From an uncultured SAR86 cluster bacterium (GTDB lineage Bacteria > Pseudomonadota > Gammaproteobacteria > Magnimaribacterales > D2472), in NCBI GenBank assembly GCA_902602595.1, contig CACKRJ010000003.1, positions 68,062 to 132,061 on the forward strand: 64,000 bases of DNA, given 5' to 3'. The notes beneath the pieces are model-generated. The model did not search any database, was not told the DNA's origin, and worked only from the letters and a program-made list of their open reading frames with translations. A program made the position numbers and the translations under genes. Below, one piece after another: positions 67 through 48,055 of this stretch; the stretch's first letter is position 1, and every line of letters begins with the position of its first letter.

Positions 67-213
67 ATTTATAATTTTGAAACTGCAACATTTATTAATG
101 AAGCTGGACATATTTGGACTGGATCTGTCTATGAAGGACTAAGTAATCCAGTTGCAAGTCAAAGAATTTGGAGCTTCTTTTCAAAGTATGACATAAATGG
201 TGTCATACAATAA
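67..213 (+). pseudogene. C-terminal remnant of an alpha/beta-hydrolase (PHB-depolymerase/LpqC-type esterase family)
   Basis: Frame 1 is open only from 67 to the TAA at 211-213. It reads IYNFETATFINEAGHIWTGSVYEGLSNPVASQRIWSFFSKYDINGVIQ*. The G-H-x-W-x-G ... W-x-F-F ending resembles the catalytic-His C-terminus of that esterase family as I recall it. There is no start codon, and all three forward frames in 1-66 contain stops. Confidence 0.3.
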
Positions 214-234
214 AAAGGGGATCTAGCGACCCCC
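212..234 (-). terminator. Rho-independent terminator candidate for the 2177->262 operon
   Basis: GC stem gggg(217-220)/cccc(231-234) with inner pairs t222-a229 and c223-g228. The A-run at 212-216 becomes a U-run on the minus strand, 28 nt downstream of the stop of ORF 262..702. Confidence 0.5.
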
Positions 235-261: not shown

Positions 262-702
262 TTAATCTTTAAAATCAACTCTATAAATAATTGCATGATC
301 GATCATCTCACGAATCTCTTCATAGCCTTTTGAGATTTCTTCTAACTCAACCTCATTATCTCCATACATTTTCTCTAATTCAGCTTCCACCGCCTTATTT
401 TTTTCTTCCGTCTGCTGCATTGAAGCTAAATCTTTGTATTGCACCGTAATCCAAACATTTGGAGTATCAGCAACGCTCAAAGAGGTCCAAACATTAAAAT
501 CCTCAACATATCCTAGCTTCTTTTGAACATTCATAGCTCGCACCCAAGTTCTATTCAAGTTGGTAAGGTAGGTATCAACATAGTTTGGTTGAACCGCAAC
601 AACAGTTAATTCCATTGGCTCTTGAGAAGGGGTAAAATCTTCATAGATTTCAGCAGCCGCAAACATTGTCATTAATGCAGGTAGAAGTAATAACTTTTTC
701 AT
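262..702 (-). CDS. Secreted hypothetical protein with a single ferredoxin-like (beta-alpha-beta-beta-alpha-beta) module
   Basis: ATG start with AAGGA Shine-Dalgarno. The signal peptide is MKKLLLLPALMTMFAAA. It is the third gene of a tightly spaced trio (18-nt gap to the upstream gene). The alternating hydrophobic strand/helix pattern suggests a dimeric alpha+beta-barrel-like fold. I recognise no family. Confidence 0.6.
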   Translation of the reverse strand: MKKLLLLPALMTMFAAAEIYEDFTPSQEPMELTVVAVQPNYVDTYLTNLNRTWVRAMNVQKKLGYVEDFNVWTSLSVADTPNVWITVQYKDLASMQQTEEKNKAVEAELEKMYGDNEVELEEISKGYEEIREMIDHAIIYRVDFKD

Positions 703-720
703 ATTTTTTCCTTATATTTT

Positions 721-1458
721 TTATCTAATTAAAGTCCCAGAATACATTCTTGAATTTTCACAAGAATATGTTTCTCGAACCGCTTTATTCTCATCAGTAT
801 TGTTTACGTCTGACCAGTAATGGTCTATTGCTTTACCCCACTCTTCCCACTCAGGTGAGCCGTAGGATAGTACAAAATCGTAATCTGCAAGTTGCGCAGG
901 AGCCCCATTGCTAGGTCTAATTAAGCGAGCACTATTTTTAATGCCTGCTTTATGAGAAATTTTCATCTGATTGCTTAGATTGATATAGGCATCTGCAAGA
1001 GTCTTACCCTCTTTCAAATTACAGTAACGATAAGATACTGGATAAGCATTTGATAATTCCTCTGGGCTAAAGTTCGATTCTAAGACCCACTGAACAGCAT
1101 TAAACGCTTGAACACATGTTACTGGTATTGAATCTCTTACTTTTTTAAAGCTTTCACCAAACCAGTTATCTAGAGCTTTACCCATATTTGTTGCTGTATC
1201 AGTATGTCCAACCCAAAACATATCAAAATCAGTAAGTGGAGAGCGGTATCTAGGAACCATGACTGCAGCATCGTAACCAGATTCATCAGTGGCATCCATG
1301 ACCTTGTTCCAAGAAGCAGACCATTTCATAAAGTCATCAAAACTTTTTCCTTCGTTTAAATTACACATCAAGTATTCCGCCCTAATCGGGTCGGGCACTT
1401 CTTGCGACTGAACAAAAAAGCTTGAAACTAATAAAGTTATTAAAAATAAATTTCTCAT
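721..1458 (-). CDS. Secreted hypothetical protein with a tandem duplication of a Cys-containing ferredoxin-like module
   Basis: Signal peptide MRNLFLITLLVSSFFVQS. An internal repeat is visible: YLMCNLNEGKSFDDF...DFDMFWV...MGKALDNWF...VTCVQ versus YRYCNLKEGKTLADA...DYDFVLS...WGKAIDHYW...YSCEN. Confidence 0.6.
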   Translation of the reverse strand: MRNLFLITLLVSSFFVQSQEVPDPIRAEYLMCNLNEGKSFDDFMKWSASWNKVMDATDESGYDAAVMVPRYRSPLTDFDMFWVGHTDTATNMGKALDNWFGESFKKVRDSIPVTCVQAFNAVQWVLESNFSPEELSNAYPVSYRYCNLKEGKTLADAYINLSNQMKISHKAGIKNSARLIRPSNGAPAQLADYDFVLSYGSPEWEEWGKAIDHYWSDVNNTDENKAVRETYSCENSRMYSGTLIR

Positions 1459-1469
1459 AATTTTCGTAC

Positions 1470-2177
1470 CTATGAATTTGGATAGTTATATGTTGCCATT
1501 ACAACCATCATTGTTGTTTTCTTTACTTCGCGCTTAACATTTTTAGAAAATGTGGCAAATGAACTGCTTTGCATAAGATTCTTTTGCTCTTCAATTGCTG
1601 ACTCGATATTTGTAGAGCCTGTGTAGGCATAATGTGAATAGTAGCTATTATTACCATGTGTATGAGCTCTTAGACCATATGAACCAGAGATATTACCATC
1701 TTCAACTTGTGCATCAATTAGTTTTTTCCATGCAGCTGCATACTTATTAGGGTTTTTTACAGACATGTAATATGTTGTATAAACACTGTTATCTGCTTGA
1801 TTATTATTGCCGCCACTCATAAGTTTTCTATTCAATGATTGTTCTACTGGTTCTGAGATATCTTGCACTTCATTTAAGAATGCTCCAAATGTTGGCGTAT
1901 AAAACATTTGAGTTCCTGTTGCCATATCAGCCTCAGAATCATAACTAATAACAACTGCATGAGTTGCATCATCATACCCATTAAATGCAAAGTGCCCTAA
2001 AGTTACAGTTCCAGGAAAGGTCTTCCCAAAATCTGAACTCATTAGACCATCAAATGATTTTGCAAAAGCGGGAACATCAGATACCTTAATTGAATAGGAT
2101 GCAATGTAGCCATCAGCTTGCAAAAATTGAAATGACATCATAAATATTGCCATTGGCAATAAAAAAAGCTTTTTCAT
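1470..2177 (-). CDS. Secreted hypothetical protein with tandem ferredoxin-like modules
   Basis: ATG with GGAGAA Shine-Dalgarno and signal peptide MKKLFLLPMAIFMMSFQFLQA. Two related halves are visible: YSIKVSDVPAFAKSFDGL... versus YYMSVKNPNKYAAAWKKL..., and FGAFLNEV versus FATFSKNV. Confidence 0.6.
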   Translation of the reverse strand: MKKLFLLPMAIFMMSFQFLQADGYIASYSIKVSDVPAFAKSFDGLMSSDFGKTFPGTVTLGHFAFNGYDDATHAVVISYDSEADMATGTQMFYTPTFGAFLNEVQDISEPVEQSLNRKLMSGGNNNQADNSVYTTYYMSVKNPNKYAAAWKKLIDAQVEDGNISGSYGLRAHTHGNNSYYSHYAYTGSTNIESAIEEQKNLMQSSSFATFSKNVKREVKKTTMMVVMATYNYPNS

Positions 2178-2224
2178 ATTTTCTCCGAGTTAAAACTATC
2201 TATAAATATTTAAGAAGATCTTAT

Positions 2225-2239
2225 TGAGAATGATTCTCA
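2225..2239. promoter_or_regulatory. Fur-box-like palindrome TGAGAAT-G-ATTCTCA
   Basis: A perfect 7-1-7 inverted repeat. It differs from the Fur 7-1-7 core TGATAAT-N-ATTATCA only by one symmetric substitution per arm. The 19-mer cttattgagaatgattctc matches GATAATGATAATCATTATC at 13/19 positions. On the minus strand it sits immediately downstream of a TTGACA hexamer (2246-2251) and 48-62 nt upstream of the ATG at 2177. Confidence 0.4.
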
Positions 2240-2271
2240 TTTATTTGTCAAGTAAAATAAATTTATTCGTC

Positions 2272-2303
2272 AAAAAAAAGGCCCTAAAACAGGGCCTTTT
2301 TTT
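2272..2303 (-). terminator. Rho-independent terminator after the TonB-dependent receptor
   Basis: Stem ggccct(2280-2285), loop aaaac, stem agggcc(2291-2296). It is flanked by an A8 run and a T7 run, 12 nt downstream of the TBDR stop. Confidence 0.75.
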
Positions 2304-2314
2304 AACTTTTTAGA

Positions 2315-5215
2315 CTAAAAGTTGTAAGTCCACCTCACTCCATAAGTTGCCTGCTCCCTTGCCCAAATACTTTTATTAAATCCTAACGGTGCTGTAGCCT
2401 CACCAATATGCATTATATTTTCTTCATCAGTGATATTTTGACCATAAATATCTACGCGCCATTTTGGATCATCCACTGAAGGAGTAATAGAAATCATTGC
2501 ATTATACTCAGTCCATGATGGAACTTTATCCCACTCAAGATCGAATAAGGAGGTATAACGCTCATCTTGTTTGTATGCGTCAAGCCTAAAGTTTACATTA
2601 TAATTTTCAGTAATCATGGTGTATTGAATACCCAAATTCATTGAAAGCTCAGGATGAGTTAGTGAATTGCCGCTAATATCTGAGAGCAATCCATCTTTAA
2701 TAGCATCAGCTGGATTACAACCAAGTATTGCACAAGCAGTATTTACCATGACTGAAGAATAAAGATCTCTGGATGCCGTGAGCGATGGCAAATGGCCAGG
2801 CGCCACATTTGGTAAAAAGCTTACAGGTGTTGGTTGTCCAGATACCCTATCGCCATGGAACTCAGCAGGCACAATAAGCGCTTGAGCTGGCCCCCAAAGA
2901 CCACCTTGCCACATATTCCAAATCACAGTTGCTACATCTTTTCTCACCACAAAGACTTCTCCATCAGCAGCATTTTTCATAAGATGCCAATTGCCACAAC
3001 CTGTTGTTAAACAAAGGTCAGCATTTGCTGGATTCATAATCATTTCACCGTTTGCAATTTCTGATTCCTCCCATGCAATACCCATGTTAACTTGCCATTG
3101 AGGAGCATTAACTGGAATCCAAATGAATTCACTTTCAAAGCCCATCATATCCACATCGATTCCCTCGTTAACACGTGTTTTATTCTGAATTTTAGTGACC
3201 TGATAATCTTCAGCATCATACATATAGGCTGCTGCATTCCAGCGCATACCCTGTGCAGGAAAATCAGTTTTAAAACCTACTTCAAATGCAGTTAATTCTG
3301 TGGAGGGAAATACCTGAGGGGTATCTGGATATTTTGCAGGATCTAGTGCTGGGTTAAACCCACCACCTTTGAATCCTTTTGAAATTGATCCATAAACAAG
3401 CGTATTGTCATTCAAAACATAATCAACAACAAATCGGCCTGTATTATTTGCATATTCTGTTTCAGGATCACCTACGGCTCCTGAGGCATACCATGACTGA
3501 CCAAATGCAGGAATTTCATTGCCTGGTAATGGCAAAGCAGTAAATCCATTGCCTTGGCTACCAAATCCAACAACGCTTAAAAATGGTGAACGACCATATT
3601 GTTCTTTGTAGTCTTCGGTTCTTCTTAAGCCCAAGGTGTATTTCAACCTATCATTAGCTTGATAATAGATCTCCCCAAATATAGCTGAACTTCTTGTTGC
3701 AGCAATGCTAGAGGTCCTATATAAGGGAGCATATAACTGCACAGCACCCTGGGGAAACCCTGTTAGAACTGTCGGTGGAAATAATGCTAATGCATCTAAT
3801 CCATTGGCTGCAATATCATATACGCTTAATCCAGAGGCTTCTGAATGAATTGCTCCCAATAAATAGTTCCAGTTTCCATCCAAACTTGATTGCAATCTTA
3901 TCTCAGTGACTTCATTTTCAGTTTCCGGATTATATTGGCGATCATAACCGTCAGGATAATTCATAGTATCAACAATACAGCCACCGTATGATCCCAAAGT
4001 ACCATTATCAAGATTACAGTTTGGGCCATAACCAGTCATAGGAACATTTCCACCAGGGAAAAAAGGATTGTCCTTGAATCTGAGTCGATCATATTCTTCT
4101 GATTCATATACTCCGGTGCGGTCATAAAGTCGATCCTTTCTCGAGTGTGATATGGTCATATCCCAATTATCATTGATTGAATGATTAACAATCAGTTGTG
4201 TGATGTCTTGATCAATAATATATCGTGGATTACCTCTATTGTTTGATTGCCAAAAACCCTTGGGTGCACCAGACATATCTGTCACTGGCGTGTAATCTAA
4301 TATTCCACTTAAAATTGCTAAATTCTCTACATAAGTTGCCATGGGATGGGTTAATTCGTGCACTTGAGGGCCGCCTGGAGTACAACCTACTGCAACGGAT
4401 GGATCGCGCTTACAATACCTATTATTTACATAGTGACGAGTAGAGTCCTCTTCGTAATGATCATGTACAAATAAAATATCTGTGTTGTCACTTAATTGCC
4501 ATGCAAAAGAAAATCTATAAGCAGAGGAATCTCGATTATTAATATGAGAAGTGGGAGCCTTTGAATAAATGTTTTCAATATCACCATCGCGCTCAACAGA
4601 CATAAGCGCAAACCTTGCAGCCATACTGTCACTCAATGGATAGTTTAATGTGTATCTCAATTTCTCTAAGTTATAATCACCGAGGTCAATAGAAACCATT
4701 TGTGTCATTTCATCAAATTTTGGTCTACCCGTAATTAAATTAATAGCTCCTCCAACAGAATTTTTACCATAGAGTGTGCCTTGAGGGCCTCTTAGCACTT
4801 CAATACGCTCCATGTCCAAAAACTCGCCGTCTTGCATGGTTGTGGAGCCAACAGGTAAGTCATTAACATGTATTTCGACTCCAGATTCAGAAGTTTGGGA
4901 TACAGCTAAGTTTGTAATACCACGAATATTAAATGCTCCTCCTGCAGCATCACTACCTTGAAAGTTTAAACTTGGAGTAACAAGTTGCAAATCAGATCCT
5001 GATTGTATTTGTTGGCTTTCAAGCATTTCTGCTGTAAGCGCAGTCACAGCAATAGGAACATCTTGCAGGCTCTCTTCTACTCTTTGAGATGTAACAATCA
5101 CTTCTTCGATTGCACTGACTGCTTTATCTTGAGCAAAAACTGGATTAATCAAAAGGAAAAAACCGCAAGCAATTGCAGTAATTTTTAGACAATAAGACAC
5201 CATCGTAATTTTCAT
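2315..5215 (-). CDS. TonB-dependent receptor (966 aa)
   Basis: Signal peptide ending VFAQD. TonB-box/plug region IEEVIVTSQRVEESLQDVPIAVTAL...IEVLRGPQGTLYGKNSVGGAINLIT. The C-terminal beta-barrel ends ...YGVRWTYNF with a terminal aromatic residue. Confidence 0.9.
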   Translation of the reverse strand: MKITMVSYCLKITAIACGFFLLINPVFAQDKAVSAIEEVIVTSQRVEESLQDVPIAVTALTAEMLESQQIQSGSDLQLVTPSLNFQGSDAAGGAFNIRGITNLAVSQTSESGVEIHVNDLPVGSTTMQDGEFLDMERIEVLRGPQGTLYGKNSVGGAINLITGRPKFDEMTQMVSIDLGDYNLEKLRYTLNYPLSDSMAARFALMSVERDGDIENIYSKAPTSHINNRDSSAYRFSFAWQLSDNTDILFVHDHYEEDSTRHYVNNRYCKRDPSVAVGCTPGGPQVHELTHPMATYVENLAILSGILDYTPVTDMSGAPKGFWQSNNRGNPRYIIDQDITQLIVNHSINDNWDMTISHSRKDRLYDRTGVYESEEYDRLRFKDNPFFPGGNVPMTGYGPNCNLDNGTLGSYGGCIVDTMNYPDGYDRQYNPETENEVTEIRLQSSLDGNWNYLLGAIHSEASGLSVYDIAANGLDALALFPPTVLTGFPQGAVQLYAPLYRTSSIAATRSSAIFGEIYYQANDRLKYTLGLRRTEDYKEQYGRSPFLSVVGFGSQGNGFTALPLPGNEIPAFGQSWYASGAVGDPETEYANNTGRFVVDYVLNDNTLVYGSISKGFKGGGFNPALDPAKYPDTPQVFPSTELTAFEVGFKTDFPAQGMRWNAAAYMYDAEDYQVTKIQNKTRVNEGIDVDMMGFESEFIWIPVNAPQWQVNMGIAWEESEIANGEMIMNPANADLCLTTGCGNWHLMKNAADGEVFVVRKDVATVIWNMWQGGLWGPAQALIVPAEFHGDRVSGQPTPVSFLPNVAPGHLPSLTASRDLYSSVMVNTACAILGCNPADAIKDGLLSDISGNSLTHPELSMNLGIQYTMITENYNVNFRLDAYKQDERYTSLFDLEWDKVPSWTEYNAMISITPSVDDPKWRVDIYGQNITDEENIMHIGEATAPLGFNKSIWAREQATYGVRWTYNF

Positions 5216-7089: not shown

Positions 7090-7845
7090 CTATCTTGAAA
7101 CTTTAAATCCTAATTGGCTTTGAACTAGGGATTCTTCTGACATATCACCTCTAGCAATAACTTGCCCTTCATCGTTGAATTGAAATCTTGTTACTTGGTT
7201 TTCTTCATATTGAAGATCAGTAATATCGTCTGTAAACTTATGCCAAGTCCAAACATAGACTACGTTCTTGCTTCTGTTTGCAGCAACTTCAATAATCTCA
7301 TATTCATCTGCACCCCAATCCTCGCCATTTGAAGATTCAATATTTTCCATAATCTGAGCTTTGCTGTATCTAGGACTCACTAACCCTCTGTTAAAAGAAA
7401 CCTCTACATCCTTACCATCTCTATTTACAACAGCTTTAACGGGTTGACCTGGAAGACCTGTAAAAGATAACACACCATTTTCTCTATTTTCTCTAGTTGC
7501 AGGAACGCCTGCAACAGATACAAAAGTGTCACCGCTTTGCAGGACGCCAACAGCAGGACTGTTCTCAATCACCCAATCAACGACCATTTGGTCGTTACTA
7601 GGATCAAAATTAAACCCAAAGCCAATAAATCTTCCAGGATAATTATAACCATCATCAGACATATGTTTTTTCACAACGGCCATAAAAGCATCTTTATCTG
7701 AATAGCCAGCATCAATCCATGATTTTGCAGTCTTAATATTATTCATCATTACTTTCTGGCTAACTTTAGATTCCTCATGATGGCCAGCAAAGATTTGAGT
7801 ACTTAAAAATAATGGAACTATTAATAATGTTTTTAAAAGATTCAT
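7090..7845 (-). CDS. Secreted protein with a PDZ-like domain apparently inserted in an NTF2/SnoaL-like fold; mature N-terminus GHHE
   Basis: Signal peptide ...LSTQIFA followed by GHHEESK. The PDZ-like segment is GRFIGFGFNF...ENSPAVGVLQSGDTFVSVAGV...GQPVKAVVNRDGKDVEVSF. The flanking helices (NNIKTAKSWIDAGYSDKDAFMAVVKKHM) and the C-terminal sheet (EIIEVAANRSKNVVYVWTWHKF...RFQFNDEGQVI) look NTF2-like. Confidence 0.55.
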   Translation of the reverse strand: MNLLKTLLIVPLFLSTQIFAGHHEESKVSQKVMMNNIKTAKSWIDAGYSDKDAFMAVVKKHMSDDGYNYPGRFIGFGFNFDPSNDQMVVDWVIENSPAVGVLQSGDTFVSVAGVPATRENRENGVLSFTGLPGQPVKAVVNRDGKDVEVSFNRGLVSPRYSKAQIMENIESSNGEDWGADEYEIIEVAANRSKNVVYVWTWHKFTDDITDLQYEENQVTRFQFNDEGQVIARGDMSEESLVQSQLGFKVSR

Positions 7846-12176: not shown

Positions 12177-14624
12177 ATGGAAAAATACAGGTATATTTTA
12201 TCTTTATGTTTTATTTTCATCTTTTCAATAAATACATTTGCGCAATCAGGTGAAATTGAAGAAATTATCACAACTGCTACTAAAACTGAGAAAACCCTTC
12301 AAGAAGTGCCCGTTGCTGTTTCAGTAATTAGTGCAGATGAAATAGATAAAGCAAATGTCATTGATGCATTTGATTTAATGCAAGTTGTTCCTTCTTTGGA
12401 TACCAGACAATATCAATCGTCTAAAAATGCTGCTTTTTTTATAAGGGGCTTTGGAAACGGTTCAAACAATAATGGTGTTGAGCCCTCAGTCGCATTATTT
12501 GTAGATGGTGTTTATCGATCAAAAATGCAAAGCCGAATCAGTGATCTTCCGATGGTTGAAAGAGTTGAGGTTCTTCGAGGTCCACAAAGTACACTTTTTG
12601 GAAAAAATGCAAGTGCAGGTGTTATTAATATTATTACCAAAAAACCTTCTTTTGAAAATTATGGAAAAGTATCTACCTCTTTTGGAAACTATAATTCAAG
12701 GAAAGTTAGAGCTTATTATACAGGACCATTAAACGAGTCTATGGCTTTCAGCCTTAGTGCTGATTCTAATCAAGCTGATGGACATGCTAAAAATCCAGTA
12801 ACCGGCAACGATACTAACAATAGAGATAGATACTCGCTTAGGGGTGAACTTTTAATTGAAACCGCTGGTAATACAGAAATCAGAATCACGGCTGATTATG
12901 ATGAATATGATGAGTTTTGCTGTCAGGTAAGTAACGTTGCGGCTGGCTTAGCTAAACAAACCGTATACGCACTTGGTGCTCAGGCAGCTCCAAATAGTCC
13001 CTACGACTCTAATGTTTACTTTAATTTTGATTCAATGGCAAAAGGTGAGAACTCTGGAATATCCATTAATTTAGTTAAAGAAATGGACAATATGATCTTT
13101 ACAAGTATTACTTCTTCTAGAGATTCAGATAGTTTCGAAAGCCAGGATATAGATTTTGACAGTGCGTTAATACTTAATCCAAATGATACCAATGTAAATT
13201 TAAAAGCAAAATCTCAAGAGTTTAGATTAGCATCAAAGGGTAATGAAAAGGTTAATTGGTTGATTGGTGCATATTACTACGAAGAGGACCTTAAAAATGA
13301 TTCAGCTGTTATCTTTGGACCAACTTGGAGAACGTATGCCGACATTCTAACATTTGGACTGACTGGCGGAGCCGCAGCATTGTCTGATTTAGCAGCTATT
13401 GGAGTTCCATCAGCAGCAATATTTGCAACGGGGCAAGGAAGCACAGGTTATTTTACTCAAGAGACTGAAACAACAACATTTTTTGGTCAAGTAGACATTA
13501 ACTTTACTGATAAGTTAAGTGCTGTCCTTGGAGCAAGTTATATTGAAGATAACAAGACAGTAACAGGTAGAGATGTAAATACAGATATCTTTTCTCAAAT
13601 AGGTTTTGTAGGTATCGGAACATTTGGATTGATACAAGCAGGCTTTGATCCAGCTACTGCAGCAGCATTAGCAGTAAATCCTCAATTCAATCCATTACTT
13701 GGTTTCCAAGCTTTGCAATTTCTTCCAGAAATGCAGCCATTTCCAGGTATAGGTCAAAGCGGTCAATCATCAGATGACAATATTGATTACACTGCAAAGC
13801 TGACATATGCATTAAATGAAAATACCTCTATATATGGTGGAATTTCAACAGGCTTTAAGTCTACTGCATGGAATCTCTCCACAGACTCAAAACCTGACGC
13901 AGCTGAAATTGCTGCATTAGCTGCTGCAGGCACTCCAGTTGCAGAAAATACAGCTCTTGGTCAAAGGTATGCCTCTCCAGAGGAAGCAGAGGTTCTTGAG
14001 CTAGGTGTAAAAATGAGACTTCCTACAGGGTACCTAAATATTACTGCCTTCAAACAAGAGATCCAAGACTTTCAATCTAACACTTTTGTTAGTTCAGGTT
14101 TTATCTTAGCAAACGCAGGACAGCAATCATCTGAAGGATTAGAATTTGATCTTATGTTTTCTCCATTACCAAGCATAGACATTACGCTTGGTGGATTAAT
14201 GATGGATTCTAATTATGATTCATTTGTTGGCTCAGCTGCAGGAGACGTTAGTGGCACCAAACCAGAGAATGTTCATGATGATTCGCTTACAAGCTCGATT
14301 ACATGGAACTGGAACAGAGGAAATACTAATGGTTATATTAGGTTAAATCATCTATATTCTGGCCCAACACTTATTAGAATAGAGCCTGATTTTAACGATG
14401 CTATGTGTGCCGTTGGTACTTGTGAGAAAACAAAAGATACTCTTAATTTTAGCGCAGGTATTTCTAGAGGTAATTTTGATATCGTTTTTTGGGGTAATAA
14501 TATAAATGATGATAAGTATCTGCATACTGCTTTTCCATCAGTTGGTGATCCTGTGAGATCATCTTTTGAGGGATATCCAAATGCACCAAAAACATATGGC
14601 GTCACAGTTAATTACTCTTTCTAA
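12177..14624 (+). CDS. TonB-dependent receptor (815 aa)
   Basis: Signal peptide ...NTFAQS. Plug region IEEIITTATKTEKTLQEVPVAVSVI...VEVLRGPQSTLFGKNASAGVINIITKKP. The C-terminus is ...YGVTVNYSF. Confidence 0.9.
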   Translation: MEKYRYILSLCFIFIFSINTFAQSGEIEEIITTATKTEKTLQEVPVAVSVISADEIDKANVIDAFDLMQVVPSLDTRQYQSSKNAAFFIRGFGNGSNNNGVEPSVALFVDGVYRSKMQSRISDLPMVERVEVLRGPQSTLFGKNASAGVINIITKKPSFENYGKVSTSFGNYNSRKVRAYYTGPLNESMAFSLSADSNQADGHAKNPVTGNDTNNRDRYSLRGELLIETAGNTEIRITADYDEYDEFCCQVSNVAAGLAKQTVYALGAQAAPNSPYDSNVYFNFDSMAKGENSGISINLVKEMDNMIFTSITSSRDSDSFESQDIDFDSALILNPNDTNVNLKAKSQEFRLASKGNEKVNWLIGAYYYEEDLKNDSAVIFGPTWRTYADILTFGLTGGAAALSDLAAIGVPSAAIFATGQGSTGYFTQETETTTFFGQVDINFTDKLSAVLGASYIEDNKTVTGRDVNTDIFSQIGFVGIGTFGLIQAGFDPATAAALAVNPQFNPLLGFQALQFLPEMQPFPGIGQSGQSSDDNIDYTAKLTYALNENTSIYGGISTGFKSTAWNLSTDSKPDAAEIAALAAAGTPVAENTALGQRYASPEEAEVLELGVKMRLPTGYLNITAFKQEIQDFQSNTFVSSGFILANAGQQSSEGLEFDLMFSPLPSIDITLGGLMMDSNYDSFVGSAAGDVSGTKPENVHDDSLTSSITWNWNRGNTNGYIRLNHLYSGPTLIRIEPDFNDAMCAVGTCEKTKDTLNFSAGISRGNFDIVFWGNNINDDKYLHTAFPSVGDPVRSSFEGYPNAPKTYGVTVNYSF

Positions 14625-37441: not shown

Positions 37442-39961
37442 TTAAAAATTATATCCTGCTTTTACGTACCAGAAAGCACCTTCGATGCCATATGGAGAAG
37501 TTTCATAATAGATTCCTCCAAGAACATTTCCAGGAACACCTTCGCCATTTGCTCCAGCTGAACCATCAATTTTAAGAGCTTCGGTATCAAATAAGTTTTG
37601 CACACCTGCTGAAAGATAGAAGTTATCTGTAAGATCAATACTTACTGATGCATCAACAGTCCACTCAGCATCTGAGTCAGTGCCAAACCAATCAGCGTGA
37701 ACTGCATAATACTCGCCATACATATTTGCACGAATAAATGAGCTAACTCTGTCACTCCAAGTTTGAGCAAGAGTTATGGTAATTCTATCTTCTGGGAGCC
37801 CTTCTTCTAAACGCTTGACTTTTGAAGCACCTGTTACAGCACCAGAATTAGTTACTTCTGTTTCTGTGTGATTCCATGCAGCACTTATATCTGCATCAGC
37901 ACCAAATAAAACAGTGTTATATGTTGCTACTATGTCATAACCTGTAGTTTCTGTGTCAAAGTCATTAGTAAAATAGTTGACTTGACCAATCAACTCTGGA
38001 TTAGGAATTCCAGCAGCGCCCATTGCAGCAACCTGAGCAGCTGTAGGAGCAGCATTACTAGTTAAAGCAACCCTATCTTCAAGTTCAATTACAAAGAAAT
38101 CAGCTGTAAGTGAAAGATCTCCTGAATTATAAACAATACCAAAGGAAGTATTAGTTGCTTCCTCAGGCTTAAGTTGTCCAGCACCAAGTTTGAAGCCAGG
38201 TAATGTTTGCGCCTGAGTTAACTGTCCATCAACAAGAGTTGTTTGAGTATTTACAACGTTTACCTGCCCTTGAGTTGGAGCTCTGAAACCAGTACTTGTT
38301 GAAAAACGTAATGCTGTAGTTTCATTGGCTTGATATCTAGCATTAAATTTAAAATCATTTGTATCACCAAATGATGAGTAGTCTTCATATCTGAATGAAC
38401 CCCCCATAAGTAGCTCATCACTAACTTGATTTTCTAAATCAACATAAAGACCATAACTTCTTCTTGTGAAGGCGCCTTGAGAATCAGGAGAGAACCCTGC
38501 AAAACCATGCGAACCAACGTTAAAGCCTTGTAATGCATATTTGCCAGCTTTCCAAGAAGCTTCTTCACCAGAAATCACTTCAAATGTTTCTTCTCTCCAC
38601 TCAGCACCATATGCAATGGTCATGGAATCAACTTGTCTTGTTAAGTCAAAATTGAAAACTTTCTCAAGCTCAATGTATGAACCAGTATAGAAATTACGAG
38701 GAGTATCAGGACCCATTGAAGGGTTAACAGTATTGTTAAGACCGAAGTCAGCTTCATTTCTACCAACTGACCCACTTAAGTCATACGAATGGCCACTTAA
38801 GAAGCCATCAGTGATATCACCTCTTCTACCAATGGTAAGGGATGTATCAGTAATATTACCCAAAAATCTTGGAGTATACCCACCAGGTGCAATCTCATTC
38901 ATCAAGAAACAGCTTGGATCAGCCATAATTGCATCTCTGACAGCATAATTTGAAGGATCAACTTGTCCAGATGCGCCAGTGCCATATGAACATGTTCCAT
39001 CCACGTTACCAACAGCTCTGTAATCACCAATTGTGAAAACTCCACTCCTGCCATCTGGATTACGATAGTAGAATCCACCATCTACATCTCTTTCAGAGTA
39101 ATTACCAAACATATAAGACTCCGAACCATCACTATTGGTGACGCCTGAGTTCATGAAAAAAGTAACATCGTCATCAACTATTGGAGCACCCCAAATTTGA
39201 CAAGGATTTGCAACCGCTGAATTGCCTCCAGCAACTAAAGAAGCACAATCAGGTCTTTGCTCACTTCTTGAAGTATCATCGGCCTGTCTTATTTGGAAAC
39301 TTGTTGTGACAAATCCTTCTTGGCCTAATGGCATGCCATATTTACCAGCAATAGTAGTTGTGGCACCATCACCTTCGGTATATTCACCCATCTTATATGA
39401 AAGACTTCCACCTTCTGATATATCATCTAATACAAAATTAAGTACGCCAGCAATAGCATCTGAACCATATTGAGCTGAAGCACCGTCTCTTAGGACTTCT
39501 ACTCTTTTTAGAGCAATAGCAGGAATCACAGAAATATCTGCACCCTGAGAACCATCATTAACACCGCCGCCTTGGAATGCAATAACTGATGCATGGTGAC
39601 GTCTTTTGCCATTAGTAAAGATCAAAGTAGCATCTGCTGACAAGCCTCTTAAGTTAGCAGGTCTAATCATACTTGCTGCATCACTAATAGGTTGAAGGTG
39701 AACGTTCAATGAAGGAACACTACCTTGAAGCTGCATAAGCAGGTCATCAGTACCAGTTTTACTAATGTCTTCAGCGCTTAATACATCAACAGGCACTGGT
39801 GAACTAGATACAGATCTAGGTTTTCCACGAGTACCAATACTGACGACTTCTTCGACGAACTCGCTGTCTTGCGCAAATGAACCAACCGAAAGCATTGTGC
39901 TTACAGCTATGATTGTTGTTAAGGACAGCCTTGCAGCAGCCCAAATAGCTTTATTTAACAT
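37442..39961 (-). CDS. TonB-dependent receptor (839 aa)
   Basis: Signal peptide ...GSFAQD. Plug region EEVVSIGTRGKPRSVSSSPVPVDVL...VEVLRDGASAQYGSDAIAGVLNFV. The C-terminus is ...WYVKAGYNF. Confidence 0.9.
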   Translation of the reverse strand: MLNKAIWAAARLSLTTIIAVSTMLSVGSFAQDSEFVEEVVSIGTRGKPRSVSSSPVPVDVLSAEDISKTGTDDLLMQLQGSVPSLNVHLQPISDAASMIRPANLRGLSADATLIFTNGKRRHHASVIAFQGGGVNDGSQGADISVIPAIALKRVEVLRDGASAQYGSDAIAGVLNFVLDDISEGGSLSYKMGEYTEGDGATTTIAGKYGMPLGQEGFVTTSFQIRQADDTSRSEQRPDCASLVAGGNSAVANPCQIWGAPIVDDDVTFFMNSGVTNSDGSESYMFGNYSERDVDGGFYYRNPDGRSGVFTIGDYRAVGNVDGTCSYGTGASGQVDPSNYAVRDAIMADPSCFLMNEIAPGGYTPRFLGNITDTSLTIGRRGDITDGFLSGHSYDLSGSVGRNEADFGLNNTVNPSMGPDTPRNFYTGSYIELEKVFNFDLTRQVDSMTIAYGAEWREETFEVISGEEASWKAGKYALQGFNVGSHGFAGFSPDSQGAFTRRSYGLYVDLENQVSDELLMGGSFRYEDYSSFGDTNDFKFNARYQANETTALRFSTSTGFRAPTQGQVNVVNTQTTLVDGQLTQAQTLPGFKLGAGQLKPEEATNTSFGIVYNSGDLSLTADFFVIELEDRVALTSNAAPTAAQVAAMGAAGIPNPELIGQVNYFTNDFDTETTGYDIVATYNTVLFGADADISAAWNHTETEVTNSGAVTGASKVKRLEEGLPEDRITITLAQTWSDRVSSFIRANMYGEYYAVHADWFGTDSDAEWTVDASVSIDLTDNFYLSAGVQNLFDTEALKIDGSAGANGEGVPGNVLGGIYYETSPYGIEGAFWYVKAGYNF

Positions 39962-45451: not shown

Positions 45452-48055
45452 CTAATTAAAAAATCTCTTAAATCTCAGACCTACAGTAGTTGGTCTAATG
45501 ATTCCAAGACGTTGTCTATCAAAGACAAAAGTATTAGCAATTTCAGCTCTCTCATCAGTGATATTGTCAATGTAGGCTTCTGCCACCCAATTGTCATTGC
45601 TTATTCCAGCACGAACATTTATGAAGCTATAGCTATCTTGAAGAGCCTTATTTGGTTCCATGACATCAGAATAACTATCATCAGACCACACTAACTGAGC
45701 TTGAAAATGTCCGGTGTTACCTGAGGATGCTCCCCATTCTTTTCTAGCACTTAAATTGCCCTGCATTCCTGGAGCGAAAGCTAAATCAGCCCCTTCAGTG
45801 ATATCGTCTGTGGGGACTAAACTTTTAGTAAGCTCTGTGTCTAAGATTGAGAATGCACCTGATAACACCCAGCCATCCATATCAGGATAATAAACAAAAT
45901 CTCCTTCAACTCCACTAATTTCAGCATCTGCTGCGTTATCTGAGAAGAATAAGTTAACAATGCTTGGATCAAAAACAGTAGTTTGAAGGCCAGTTACATC
46001 AACCATGAATGCACTTCCGTTGAACCTTAATCGACCATCAGCAAGAACAGCTTTCCAACCAAATTCATAGTTGGTCACTTCATCAGACTTAACTTCAGGT
46101 TTTACAGTGTAAGTTCCAGCCGCATTAGATGATCCAACTGGTCTATTTAAGAGTCCTGGTCTAAAACCTTCAGACCATGTTACGTAATACATCACATCTT
46201 CAGATGGATTCCATGAGTAGGTTATTTTACCAATTGAGCCATCACTTTTAGCTTTATCTGGATAGCCATTTGCATTTCCAGGAGCGTATTGGGCAGATAA
46301 GTTAGATCCATATTTTTGTTGATCGGTATTACCAAATCCATTACCAAAAGATGAGTTTGCACTCCCTTCAAAATCAACTTCAATGTCATAGTAACGAATA
46401 CCAACAGTAAGTTCGGATGTTTCAGTTACATCAACACTAAGTTCGCCAAACACTCCCTGTTGCTTATCAGTTCTTTTGATATCATTAAAGAAGATTACAG
46501 GCTCGCTATATGGTCCGGCTGAGAACCATCCAGCTGCACCATTATTAATTGCTCCAGTTGAGGAAATATCAGTAAGAGCATAGTTTGGAGAATACGTAAT
46601 ATCATTCCCAACAGAATTTGGGTATGTAAATAAATTTAACTCTGTTAATTCCAAATCACTAAAAAATACACCAGCTGTAAGACTTGAATTATCACTGATT
46701 GGAGCATTGATACGGAATTCATGAGTTGTAACTTCCGTATTTGTAGTTGAATCAACTAACAAGTTAGGTGCGCCACAAGTTCCTGTTGGAACATTGCCTG
46801 GAGCAAATGATGTATAAGTTACATAGTAATCACATATATAGTACGGCAGATACTGACCAACAAATAAATAATCTGTGTAATCTACATCTTGATCTGTTGT
46901 TCTGTCTGTGTAAGCACCAGTATAAAGCACTTCAAGATCGCCAATTGAGCCTTTAAGGGTGAAGCTTATGTTGTCAAACTCATCTTCAATTTCATCATTG
47001 GTATATCTTTGGATTTCTAAGTCACCTTTAGTTGGATCAACAAAAAACACACCATCAGCCTCAATAGTTTGAGTAGCAAAAGTTGCTAAAGCATCCCAAT
47101 TATCATTAATCTCATGGGCAACACTTGCTCTAAAGCCTTCGTAAGTAACTGGGTTAGCATCTTCTTGAACAATCGCATTTGCTTTGTTAAAAGTAACGCC
47201 TGAAAGATCAGCCCCTGCTTGGAAACCAGCTCTTGAAGCTGAAACAGGAAGGCCATTTTCTCTAACAGTGCCGCCGGCTCTGAAACGAGCTGATTGGCTT
47301 GCATCAAGTGTCCCAGCAACTTGATCAATATAACCGCCTCTTCTATCTCTATAGGCAACAAATCTTAGTGCTGTTTCTTCACCCATAGGTATGTTAGACA
47401 TATATTCGAATTTGTTACCAGTATCACCGTCAGGCATAAATCGAGTTTCTATCTCTAAGCTACTTGATGATTCGCCAATTACAGGTTTATTTGTGATCAT
47501 GCGAACAACACCTGCTTGAGAGCTAGCACCAAATAGAGTTCCTTGCGGTCCAGATAGAACCTCAACACGGCCAACATCAGCTGCATAAACATCTAAGTTT
47601 CTTCCTGGCTGACCCAATGGTTGCTCATCTAGATAAAAGGCAACATTAGGTGCTAAACCAGCAACACCAGCAGTAGTAAGATTGGGGGTAGTAGAAGCAA
47701 GACCTCTAATATATATAGTGCTTTGACCGGGCCCTGATCCACCAGCCGTAACTCCAGGTAATTGCATTAAATAATCCTCAAATACATTTATCCCTTTTTG
47801 CTCAAGTGCTTCCTCACCAATAGCAGAGACAGAAAGTGGGACATCTTGCAGACTTTCATCCTTCTTTCTTGAGGTAACAACAACTTCTTCAATAGTTGCT
47901 TGAGATTGAGCAGATATATATCCACTGTATGCAGAAGCATTAATAATTGCCAATGCAGAAATAGCAGAGACAATCCTGCCAAATACTTTATCAAAGGACT
48001 TTTTATTAAAAAGCAATTTGAGTTTTTTTGCGTTAATTTTAATAGTATTTATCAT
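45452..48055 (-). CDS. TonB-dependent receptor (867 aa)
   Basis: Plug region IEEVVVTSRKKDESLQDVPLSVSAI...VEVLSGPQGTLFGASSQAGVVRMITNKP. The C-terminus is ...VGLRFKRFFN, with a long N-terminal leader. Confidence 0.9.
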   Translation of the reverse strand: MINTIKINAKKLKLLFNKKSFDKVFGRIVSAISALAIINASAYSGYISAQSQATIEEVVVTSRKKDESLQDVPLSVSAIGEEALEQKGINVFEDYLMQLPGVTAGGSGPGQSTIYIRGLASTTPNLTTAGVAGLAPNVAFYLDEQPLGQPGRNLDVYAADVGRVEVLSGPQGTLFGASSQAGVVRMITNKPVIGESSSSLEIETRFMPDGDTGNKFEYMSNIPMGEETALRFVAYRDRRGGYIDQVAGTLDASQSARFRAGGTVRENGLPVSASRAGFQAGADLSGVTFNKANAIVQEDANPVTYEGFRASVAHEINDNWDALATFATQTIEADGVFFVDPTKGDLEIQRYTNDEIEDEFDNISFTLKGSIGDLEVLYTGAYTDRTTDQDVDYTDYLFVGQYLPYYICDYYVTYTSFAPGNVPTGTCGAPNLLVDSTTNTEVTTHEFRINAPISDNSSLTAGVFFSDLELTELNLFTYPNSVGNDITYSPNYALTDISSTGAINNGAAGWFSAGPYSEPVIFFNDIKRTDKQQGVFGELSVDVTETSELTVGIRYYDIEVDFEGSANSSFGNGFGNTDQQKYGSNLSAQYAPGNANGYPDKAKSDGSIGKITYSWNPSEDVMYYVTWSEGFRPGLLNRPVGSSNAAGTYTVKPEVKSDEVTNYEFGWKAVLADGRLRFNGSAFMVDVTGLQTTVFDPSIVNLFFSDNAADAEISGVEGDFVYYPDMDGWVLSGAFSILDTELTKSLVPTDDITEGADLAFAPGMQGNLSARKEWGASSGNTGHFQAQLVWSDDSYSDVMEPNKALQDSYSFINVRAGISNDNWVAEAYIDNITDERAEIANTFVFDRQRLGIIRPTTVGLRFKRFFN

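Follow-up and report, generated by a model that had tools for sequence, protein, structure and literature searches.

Three protein families of SAR86 bacteria that lack a named family, with export leaders and, in two of them, a predicted single-chain α+β barrel, usually encoded near TonB-dependent receptor genes

A 64,000-nt stretch of a SAR86 (Magnimaribacterales) genome (contig CACKRJ010000003.1; 36.6% G+C), called the window here, encodes three short exported-type proteins of 235, 245 and 146 amino acids (aa), named A235, B245 and C146. Their genes follow one another on the minus strand behind the gene of a 966-aa TonB-dependent receptor (TBDR). The fold class of A235 and B245 is well known and exported members of it exist. 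What is new is three sequence families (A, B and C) for which Pfam and NCBIfam hold no model. Two of the three families turned up essentially only in SAR86 and there belong to a conserved set, of exported type and with putative disulfides, in loci that carry TBDR and esterase genes. The comparisons below draw on a scan of one genome per GTDB species, which gave 47 loci with an A gene; metagenome contigs and the window bring these to 58. Loci are numbered L001 onward where they need to be told apart.

A235, B245 and C146 are real genes under strong purifying selection. Against SAR86 orthologues the ratio of nonsynonymous to synonymous substitution (dN/dS) is 0.04-0.08 for A235, 0.04-0.06 for B245 and 0.03-0.04 for C146, where synonymous divergence (dS) ranges from 0.7 to more than 2. 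Pfam and NCBIfam scans of the three proteins and of 40 diverse C relatives returned no family, and profile searches of PDB sequences from five alignments returned zero matches, 2PGC (the closest structure, see below) not being recovered. Public copies of A, B and C are called 'hypothetical protein' where they are named and are mostly nameless. An earlier reading made by a model from the letters alone (the sequence-only reading) had been unable to place them in any named family, which agrees with these searches.

In minus-strand order the locus comprises the 966-aa TBDR, a 137-nt spacer, A235, an 11-nt gap, B245, an 18-nt gap and C146. The sequence-only reading had given the same three open reading frames (ORFs), lengths and gaps, and its placing of the trio after a TBDR is confirmed by Pfam Plug and β-barrel domains in the receptor. 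The features, in window coordinates, are:

5215..2315, minus strand: 966-aa TBDR, directly upstream of A235, with Pfam Plug (E = 3e-17) and TonB_dep_Rec_b-barrel (E = 2e-18) domains
2272-2303, minus strand: intrinsic terminator hairpin between TBDR and A235 (scan match; RNAfold -20.1 kcal/mol)
2225..2251, minus strand: promoter/operator-like block about 55 nt upstream of the A235 start codon (read directly)
2177..1470, minus strand: A235, ORF of 235 aa, exported-type protein
1458..721, minus strand: B245, ORF of 245 aa, exported-type protein
702..262, minus strand: C146, ORF of 146 aa, exported-type protein
212-234, minus strand: terminator-like hairpin past the C146 stop codon, GGGGGTC-GCTA-GATCCCC followed by TTTTT (RNAfold -18.3 kcal/mol)

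The three genes constitute a transcription unit that is bounded by a terminator on each side. The hairpin at 2272-2303 opens the 137-nt spacer and is symmetric, with A/T runs on either side. Its stem is preserved via compensatory substitutions in L014, L016, L017 and L012, and the terminator that the sequence-only reading saw after the TBDR is borne out by these changes and by its folding energy. The same reading proposed a TTGACA-containing promoter. The hexamer is present (2246-2251, minus strand) and is almost invariant among relatives; a full sigma-70 promoter did not emerge from a consensus scan of the minus strand. A perfect 7-1-7 palindrome, TGAGAATCATTCTCA (TGAGAAT-C-ATTCTCA; 2225-2239), lies 6 nt past the hexamer and has the look of an operator. 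Hexamer and palindrome are kept together in L001-L005, L011 and L017 despite saturated synonymous sites (dS about 1.4). Shine-Dalgarno-like motifs stand ahead of A235 (GGAG) and C146 (AAGGA).

Export of A235, B245 and C146 to the periplasm by Sec, as soluble proteins, is highly probable because of their leader features and because the invariant Cys pair of B sits where strands β1 and β4 meet. The leaders start with K/R residues that are followed by at least 12 uncharged residues; lipobox and twin-arginine motifs are absent. These features are found in 45 of 45 A, 54 of 55 B, 14 of 16 SAR86 C and 40 of 40 distant C homologues, in keeping with the signal peptides that had been read in the window's three proteins. 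Candidate signal-peptidase I sites, read directly, fall between LQA and DG in A, VQS and QE in B, and AAA and EI in C. In the AlphaFold2 (AF2) model of B245, residues 1-18 have a pLDDT below 50. The leaders and modules are laid out as follows:

A235: leader about aa 1-21; modules aa 22-124 (nt 1806-2114) and aa 125-235 (nt 1473-1805)
A235 module 1 (DSSP of the AF2 model): strand 24-32, helix 35-52, strand 57-65, strand 73-79, helix 82-104, strand 108-122
A235 module 2 (DSSP of the AF2 model): strand 132-140, helix 143-159, strand 166-174, strand 182-188, helix 191-213, strand 216-230
B245: leader about aa 1-18; modules aa 19-130 (nt 1069-1404) and aa 131-245 (nt 724-1068)
C146: leader about aa 1-17; remainder a predicted single module

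There is very little doubt that A235 and B245 would adopt the dimeric α+β-barrel (ferredoxin-like) fold. The AF2 model of each (A235: pLDDT 86.7, pTM 0.81; B245: pLDDT 80.7, pTM 0.77) contains two β-α-β-β-α-β modules, and the DSSP assignment of B245 is analogous to that of A235. As modelled, both are single-chain 'pseudo-dimers' whose two modules pack in one barrel and reflect an ancient internal duplication. The two halves are related within A235 (hhalign probability 73%, E = 3e-5) and within B245 (hhalign 92%, E = 5e-7; BLASTP E = 3e-5, 24% identity across 88 aa), as the repeats described by the sequence-only reading had implied. Foldseek searches of the two models against the PDB returned 140-147 chains at E <= 0.001, with probability 1.00 to 2PGC, to the tandem-ABM structures 5F9P, 3F44, 3MCS and 9KDP, and to chlorite dismutase (Cld) and HemQ. 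The top match by template-modelling score (TM) is 2PGC for A235 (TM 0.70/0.80, root-mean-square deviation 3.0 Å over 214 columns) and likewise for B245 (TM 0.65/0.77). The β-α-β-β-α-β fold that had been guessed for five modules is in this way supported by AF2 and Foldseek for four of them, those of A and B. Profile-profile comparisons of A, B, C, the neighbouring proteins DUF1330 and x155, and half-domains gave signal within A and within B only, so that 'five homologous modules' is supported at the level of fold only.

The A family has 89 clusters with a lowest identity of about 41% and is essentially confined to SAR86 genomes among those found. Thirty-seven of its positions are invariant, with Tyr, His, Asp, Glu, Arg or Lys at many of these, and such invariant polar residues suggest a defined site. 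His73 (invariant) and His182 (conserved in at least 90%) take equivalent positions in the two modules, at the starts of β3 and not in helices. Homologues of B form 10 clusters with a lowest identity of 59%, and a 90%-identity cluster of B contains 1,158 members. B was seen solely in loci carrying A, no search for B elsewhere having been made. Among B positions conserved in at least 90% of members there is no His. B245 has one Cys pair in each module, Cys32/Cys115 and Cys146/Cys233, as the sequence-only reading noted for the window's protein; across the family only Cys146/Cys233 is invariant (55 of 55 members), and the N-terminal pair (Cys32 in 12 and Cys115 in 11 of the 55) marks the subclade of the window's sequence. 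By DSSP of the AF2 model, each pair combines the C-terminal end of β1 with the start of β4. A β1-β4 disulfide that staples each module is plausible, because the two strands are adjacent and antiparallel in this fold, and it would fit folding in the periplasm. Tandem copies of B occur, three in L044 and two in each of L036, L038, L040, L045, L046, L048, L049 and L054, and C is absent from some loci with expanded B, which suggests that A, B and C form a modular set and not a fixed trio.

Homology searches assign C146 to a family of its own, far broader than A or B, whose members are exported proteins about 150 aa long. It has 179 close homologues, the best 120 of which are all at least 85% identical, and its exact sequence is found on 92 contigs. 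A deep hidden Markov model search of 1.84 billion proteins recovered 122 clusters (at 50% identity). Aligned full-length members of the C family are 19-71% identical, and Y45 and R131 are invariant in the diverse alignment. Within Pfam, C146 gives a chance-level match to ANG-1 only. It is likely to be one β-α-β-β-α-β module of the topology predicted for A and B, on the weak evidence of a crude periodicity predictor. This predictor, which uses hydrophobic moments and residue propensities and was calibrated on A and B, gave strand-helix-strand-strand-helix-helix-strand for C146; its helix/strand agreement with DSSP is 0.84-0.87 but its three-state accuracy (Q3) just 0.53-0.60. As a single module C146 would have to dimerise. 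A subgroup of C with the motif VDPN[KH]IDDY (L058-L137) is frequent in soil, peat and rhizosphere metagenomes, in DNA of 59-70% GC, which makes this small exported family widespread beyond the ocean.

Known systems of this fold resemble A and B to different degrees. 2PGC is one of five Joint Center for Structural Genomics (JCSG) structures of novel Global Ocean Sampling (GOS) families, and no function was reported for it (PMC2557142). It shares with A and B the single chain, here some 206 residues long, and it originates in a surface-ocean metagenome (GOS protein jcvi_pep_1096685590403). It differs in sequence, being absent at E <= 10 from searches with the A, B and broad-B profiles, and its Foldseek identity is 10-12%. 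Since 2PGC is uncharacterised, it transfers no function to A or B. The tandem ABM monooxygenases (5F9P, which is anthrone-oxidase-like, PenE 9KDP, 3F44 and 3MCS) are also single-chain double barrels of equal size (Foldseek E = 1e-8 to 1e-6, TM 0.5-0.6). Enzymes of this type work cofactor-free, a chemistry that is possible in the periplasm, and to our knowledge the known tandem members are cytoplasmic enzymes of secondary metabolism. Unlike them, A and B have Sec leaders, and B has Cys pairs that could form disulfides. Neither A nor B matches Pfam ABM (PF03992), Chlor_dismutase or DyP even at E <= 1. The CDE superfamily (chlorite dismutase, HemQ/coproheme decarboxylase and DyP/EfeB) shares the two ferredoxin-like domains per chain, and some of its members (EfeB, Cld) are periplasmic and tied to iron or heme. 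Foldseek links B245 to HemQ/Cld at E of about 1e-8 to 2e-8, with TM of about 0.45-0.53 for A and B; the differences are the lack of any Pfam or NCBIfam match, the lack of a conserved His in B, and leaders of Sec type in place of Tat. DUF1330 (PF07045) is a small protein that we take, from its Pfam clan, to be of the same fold class as A and B. It differs from all three proteins in being leaderless, 95 aa long and without profile similarity to any A, B or C module, and it is probably a cytoplasmic protein that pairs with malate synthase G.

Loci were labelled by ORF calling and profiles, and the label p251 was disregarded for proteins of more than 600 aa, where it reflects GH2 contamination. 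The 47 scan loci are nearly all titled SAR86, the nearest being AG-313-O08 (94%) and SAR86E (89%). A occurs with B in 53 of the 58 loci, and C was detected in 24. Three gene orders can be told apart (genes point the same way unless marked):

Type 1 (window type): amidohydrolase (reversed), TBDR (about 966 aa), A, B, C, optional esterase (reversed), malate synthase G, DUF1330, GH2; TBDR 63-148 nt upstream of A in 7 of 8 loci
Type 2: B, PDZ-like p251, B, cyclase-family protein, membrane protein, A, TBDR (873 aa), malate synthase G; TBDR about 440 nt downstream of A in 4 of 4 loci with enough flank
Type 3 (majority): GMC oxidoreductase, patatin, TBDR (about 1057 aa, TIGR01782), M64-like protein, x155, A, PHB-depolymerase-family esterase, optional C, one or two B, FAD monooxygenase, malate synthase G, DUF1330; TBDR about 2.8 kb upstream of A in 29 of 33 loci

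The type-3 C and B proteins are 31% (E = 9e-18) and 29% (E = 1.5e-22) identical to those of the window. Some loci stand apart. L014 (PAEE01000021.1) is titled 'Methanobacteriota archaeon' despite its SAR86-type A locus and is very probably mis-binned. L030 (CABZOI010000002.1, 'SAR92 cluster bacterium') and L032 ('Cellvibrionales bacterium') have divergent A or B genes without conserved context and may be genuine outliers. In the long-read locus L006 (ERZ28548068 contig_13302_pilon), the TBDR and malate synthase genes are frameshifted and a block of TBDR, malate synthase G, DUF1330 and GH2 appears duplicated; these anomalies are probably artefacts of assembly or polishing.

The association of A and B with TBDRs is probably real but loose, and it is specific to SAR86. 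In all three gene orders a TBDR is found at a distance of 0-3 genes from A, which seems more than chance and is the part of the sequence-only reading, in which the trio was a partner set of its receptor, that stands. An orthologue of the 966-aa TBDR is directly upstream of A in the window and in L001, L002, L012, L014, L016 and L017; it is absent from L015, the eighth type-1 locus with enough flank. The three receptors are non-orthologous: those of types 1 and 3 and of types 2 and 3 give no BLASTP hit to each other, and those of types 1 and 2 share 23% identity in the plug only. The 966-aa TBDR reaches no substrate-specific NCBIfam family cut-off. In SAR86, 1.4-1.9% of the genes encode TBDRs (19/1316 and 33/1712; Dupont et al., 2012, PMC3358033). 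By chance, a TBDR would fall within ±3 genes in about 10% of cases per gene order, and the value for three gene orders is about 0.001 if these are independent.

An esterase gene adds to the picture. In the window only its end is left:

91-210, plus strand: relic of the last 40 codons of a PHB-depolymerase-family esterase lipoprotein gene (tblastn)

The relic is 62% identical over 40 aa to the C-terminus of Est345 of L013 and L014 (E = 3e-15), and all frames upstream of it are stopped. At this position L012-L014 have an intact esterase gene. In type-3 loci the gene is placed within the cluster, in type-1 loci next to it, and the intact homologue in L007 passes the cut-off of NCBIfam NF050058 (153.9 bits against 150). 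Gene comparison thus makes the esterase an ancestral part of the cluster, and since it is intact in relatives and within type-3 clusters, it would have been deleted in the window's lineage. The type-3 loci (L007-L010 and L026-L056) contain patatin, rhodanese, flavin oxidoreductase and TBDR genes, and by this gene content they match a lipid-type locus described earlier. That locus was read as lipid-degrading, with sulfolipid degradation proposed, and its hypothetical proteins were left undiscussed (Dupont et al., 2012, PMC3358033). Further products of type-3 loci are an M64-like protein that carries cadherin/Big_9 domains, a 155-aa exported protein and an FAD monooxygenase.

Other genes adjoin the cluster. 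p251 is a 251-aa exported protein (window 7090-7845, minus strand; also L018 and L020-L023) that scores below threshold against PDZ_2 (25.5 bits, cut-off 27), and in type 2 a B paralogue stands on either side of it. The mature protein begins with GHHEES, which is similar to the His/acidic N-termini of type-3 B (ADDHE...) and of a SnoaL-like exported protein of 198 aa in L015 (9266-9862, minus strand). A Polyketide_cyc2/SRPBCC protein of 130 aa is found in L020 (4225-4617, plus strand). With its SnoaL-like, SRPBCC and DUF1330 proteins, the neighbourhood shows an enrichment of folds that accommodate small hydrophobic molecules. A role in the kynurenine pathway was considered, as indoleamine 2,3-dioxygenase, a cyclase/formamidase-like gene and the FAD monooxygenase lie near the cluster in some architectures. 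This idea was dropped: the enzymes are of cytoplasmic type, none is in every gene order, and the monooxygenase matches best to HpxO/3-hydroxybenzoate-type models.

The reading that we prefer, though it falls slightly short of an even chance, is a functional link of A, B and C to an organic substrate imported by the TBDR. Most characterised members of the fold are either cofactor-independent enzymes that act on hydrophobic or aromatic small molecules, or heme enzymes. Sec export would hand A, B and C over unfolded and hence without a cytoplasmic cofactor, and the periplasm supplies neither ATP nor NAD(P)H; cofactor-independent action is proposed for these reasons. The three proteins would act as periplasmic barrels on a small organic molecule that is hydrophobic or contains an ester. 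They would bind it or, with greater likelihood, convert it by an isomerase, cyclase or oxygenase activity, as is known for characterised proteins of the fold. The neighbouring TBDR would import this molecule into the periplasm, and the exported esterase of the ancestral cluster would trim it. Given such a link, an enzyme is a somewhat better guess than a pure binder or shuttle. That SAR86 relies on TBDRs and has very few periplasmic binding proteins was remarked on from its first genomes onward, and just two ABC (ATP-binding cassette) importers with binding proteins are present (Dupont et al., 2012, PMC3358033). TBDR cargo would therefore be without its usual periplasmic handlers. It is a speculative thought, and on balance unlikely, that SAR86 uses lineage-specific, disulfide-stapled, Sec-exported α+β barrels (A, B and a recruited C) as a new class of periplasmic handler. 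Equally speculative is the further step, in which lipid-like or aromatic TBDR cargo, trimmed by the esterase, would be passed on to inner-membrane transporters, with the barrels serving as cofactor-independent enzymes or as carriers.

A number of observations weigh against a tie to TBDR cargo and speak for conserved periplasmic proteins with a TBDR-unrelated role, such as envelope maintenance, stress protection or detoxification, comparable to the 'stress-responsive' Dabb proteins. The adjacency would then stem from compact, TBDR-rich genomes and from synteny held by malate synthase G. Four TBDRs are encoded in the window alone (2315-5215, 12177-14624, 37442-39961 and 45452-48055) among about 50 genes. 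This local density raises the chance of the three events to about 0.06, and such a TBDR-rich island weakens the adjacency argument based on genome-wide TBDR frequency. A terminator lies between the receptor and A235-B245-C146, which have a promoter-like block of their own and are insulated by terminators. In four type-3 genomes (L036, L040, L048 and L054) patatin abuts the M64-like gene with no TBDR, and A, the esterase, B and C are retained; the TBDR is not adjacent in L015, L024, L025 and L030 either. On these points, and because B or C is sometimes missing, the partner-set claim of the sequence-only reading does not hold in full. The three families show no detectable sequence homology to one another. 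The most constant neighbours, downstream in most loci, are malate synthase G and DUF1330, which could reflect plain synteny and not a functional link. Conservation away from TBDRs, which had been named beforehand as telling against the partner idea, is seen for the soil C family, while A and B are usually near a TBDR: the 80 loci of the distant C subgroup have no A or B, their neighbours are heterogeneous and their context is not conserved, and just 1 of the 34 that span at least 6 kb has a TBDR. This TBDR-unrelated role is nevertheless rather unlikely in our estimate. A is within 0-3 genes of a different TBDR in each of three gene orders, in the majority architecture the gene of an exported esterase sits among those of A, B and C, and the many invariant polar residues of A suggest a specific site over generic protection.

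Periplasmic handling of heme or iron is less likely still, and we consider it improbable. Here the proteins would resemble EfeB/DyP, HemQ/Cld or IsdG-type proteins, under Fur-like regulation by iron and serving a heme or iron-chelate TBDR. By E-value, the top Foldseek matches of B245 are indeed coproheme decarboxylase/HemQ and chlorite dismutase (E about 2e-8), but their TM of about 0.45-0.53 compares with 0.65-0.80 for 2PGC, and Pfam gives no match to Chlor_dismutase, DyP or ABM at E <= 1. The paired His73 and His182 of A would suit this role, whereas B, having no conserved histidine, offers no proximal heme ligand. EfeB is exported by Tat, and the leaders here are of Sec type. The palindrome TGAGAATCATTCTCA overlaps the promoter and agrees with the consensus of the Fur 7-1-7 core at 12 of its 14 specified positions, yet it is confined to the closest relatives. 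Matches to the Fur core with 2 mismatches are not above chance in the window (2 against 1.38 expected), and Fur-like matches of at least 14/19 number 10 against 6.0 simulated in this AT-rich DNA; those in type-3 loci fall within the GMC oxidoreductase coding sequence. A TBDR is directly upstream, but the TBDRs reach no heme or siderophore cut-off of NCBIfam, the type-3 receptor being TIGR01782, and the neighbours are an esterase and lipid-type enzymes. That the three ORFs are chance frames or decaying pseudogenes has practically no probability left. Nothing beyond the absent annotation favours it, and it is already refuted by selection and conservation: dN/dS is 0.03-0.08 with saturated dS, hundreds of full-length homologues reach down to 20-45% identity, the AF2 models are confident, and ribosome-binding sites and terminators are present.

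The A, B and C families are abundant in ocean metagenomes, strongly constrained and embedded in TBDR/esterase loci. If the preferred reading is true, and A, B and C process or carry TBDR cargo, they would provide a concrete and testable handle on the carbon specialisation of SAR86. Otherwise, they are three unmodelled families, two of which would be new exported branches of the dimeric α+β barrel, and they merit Pfam entries.

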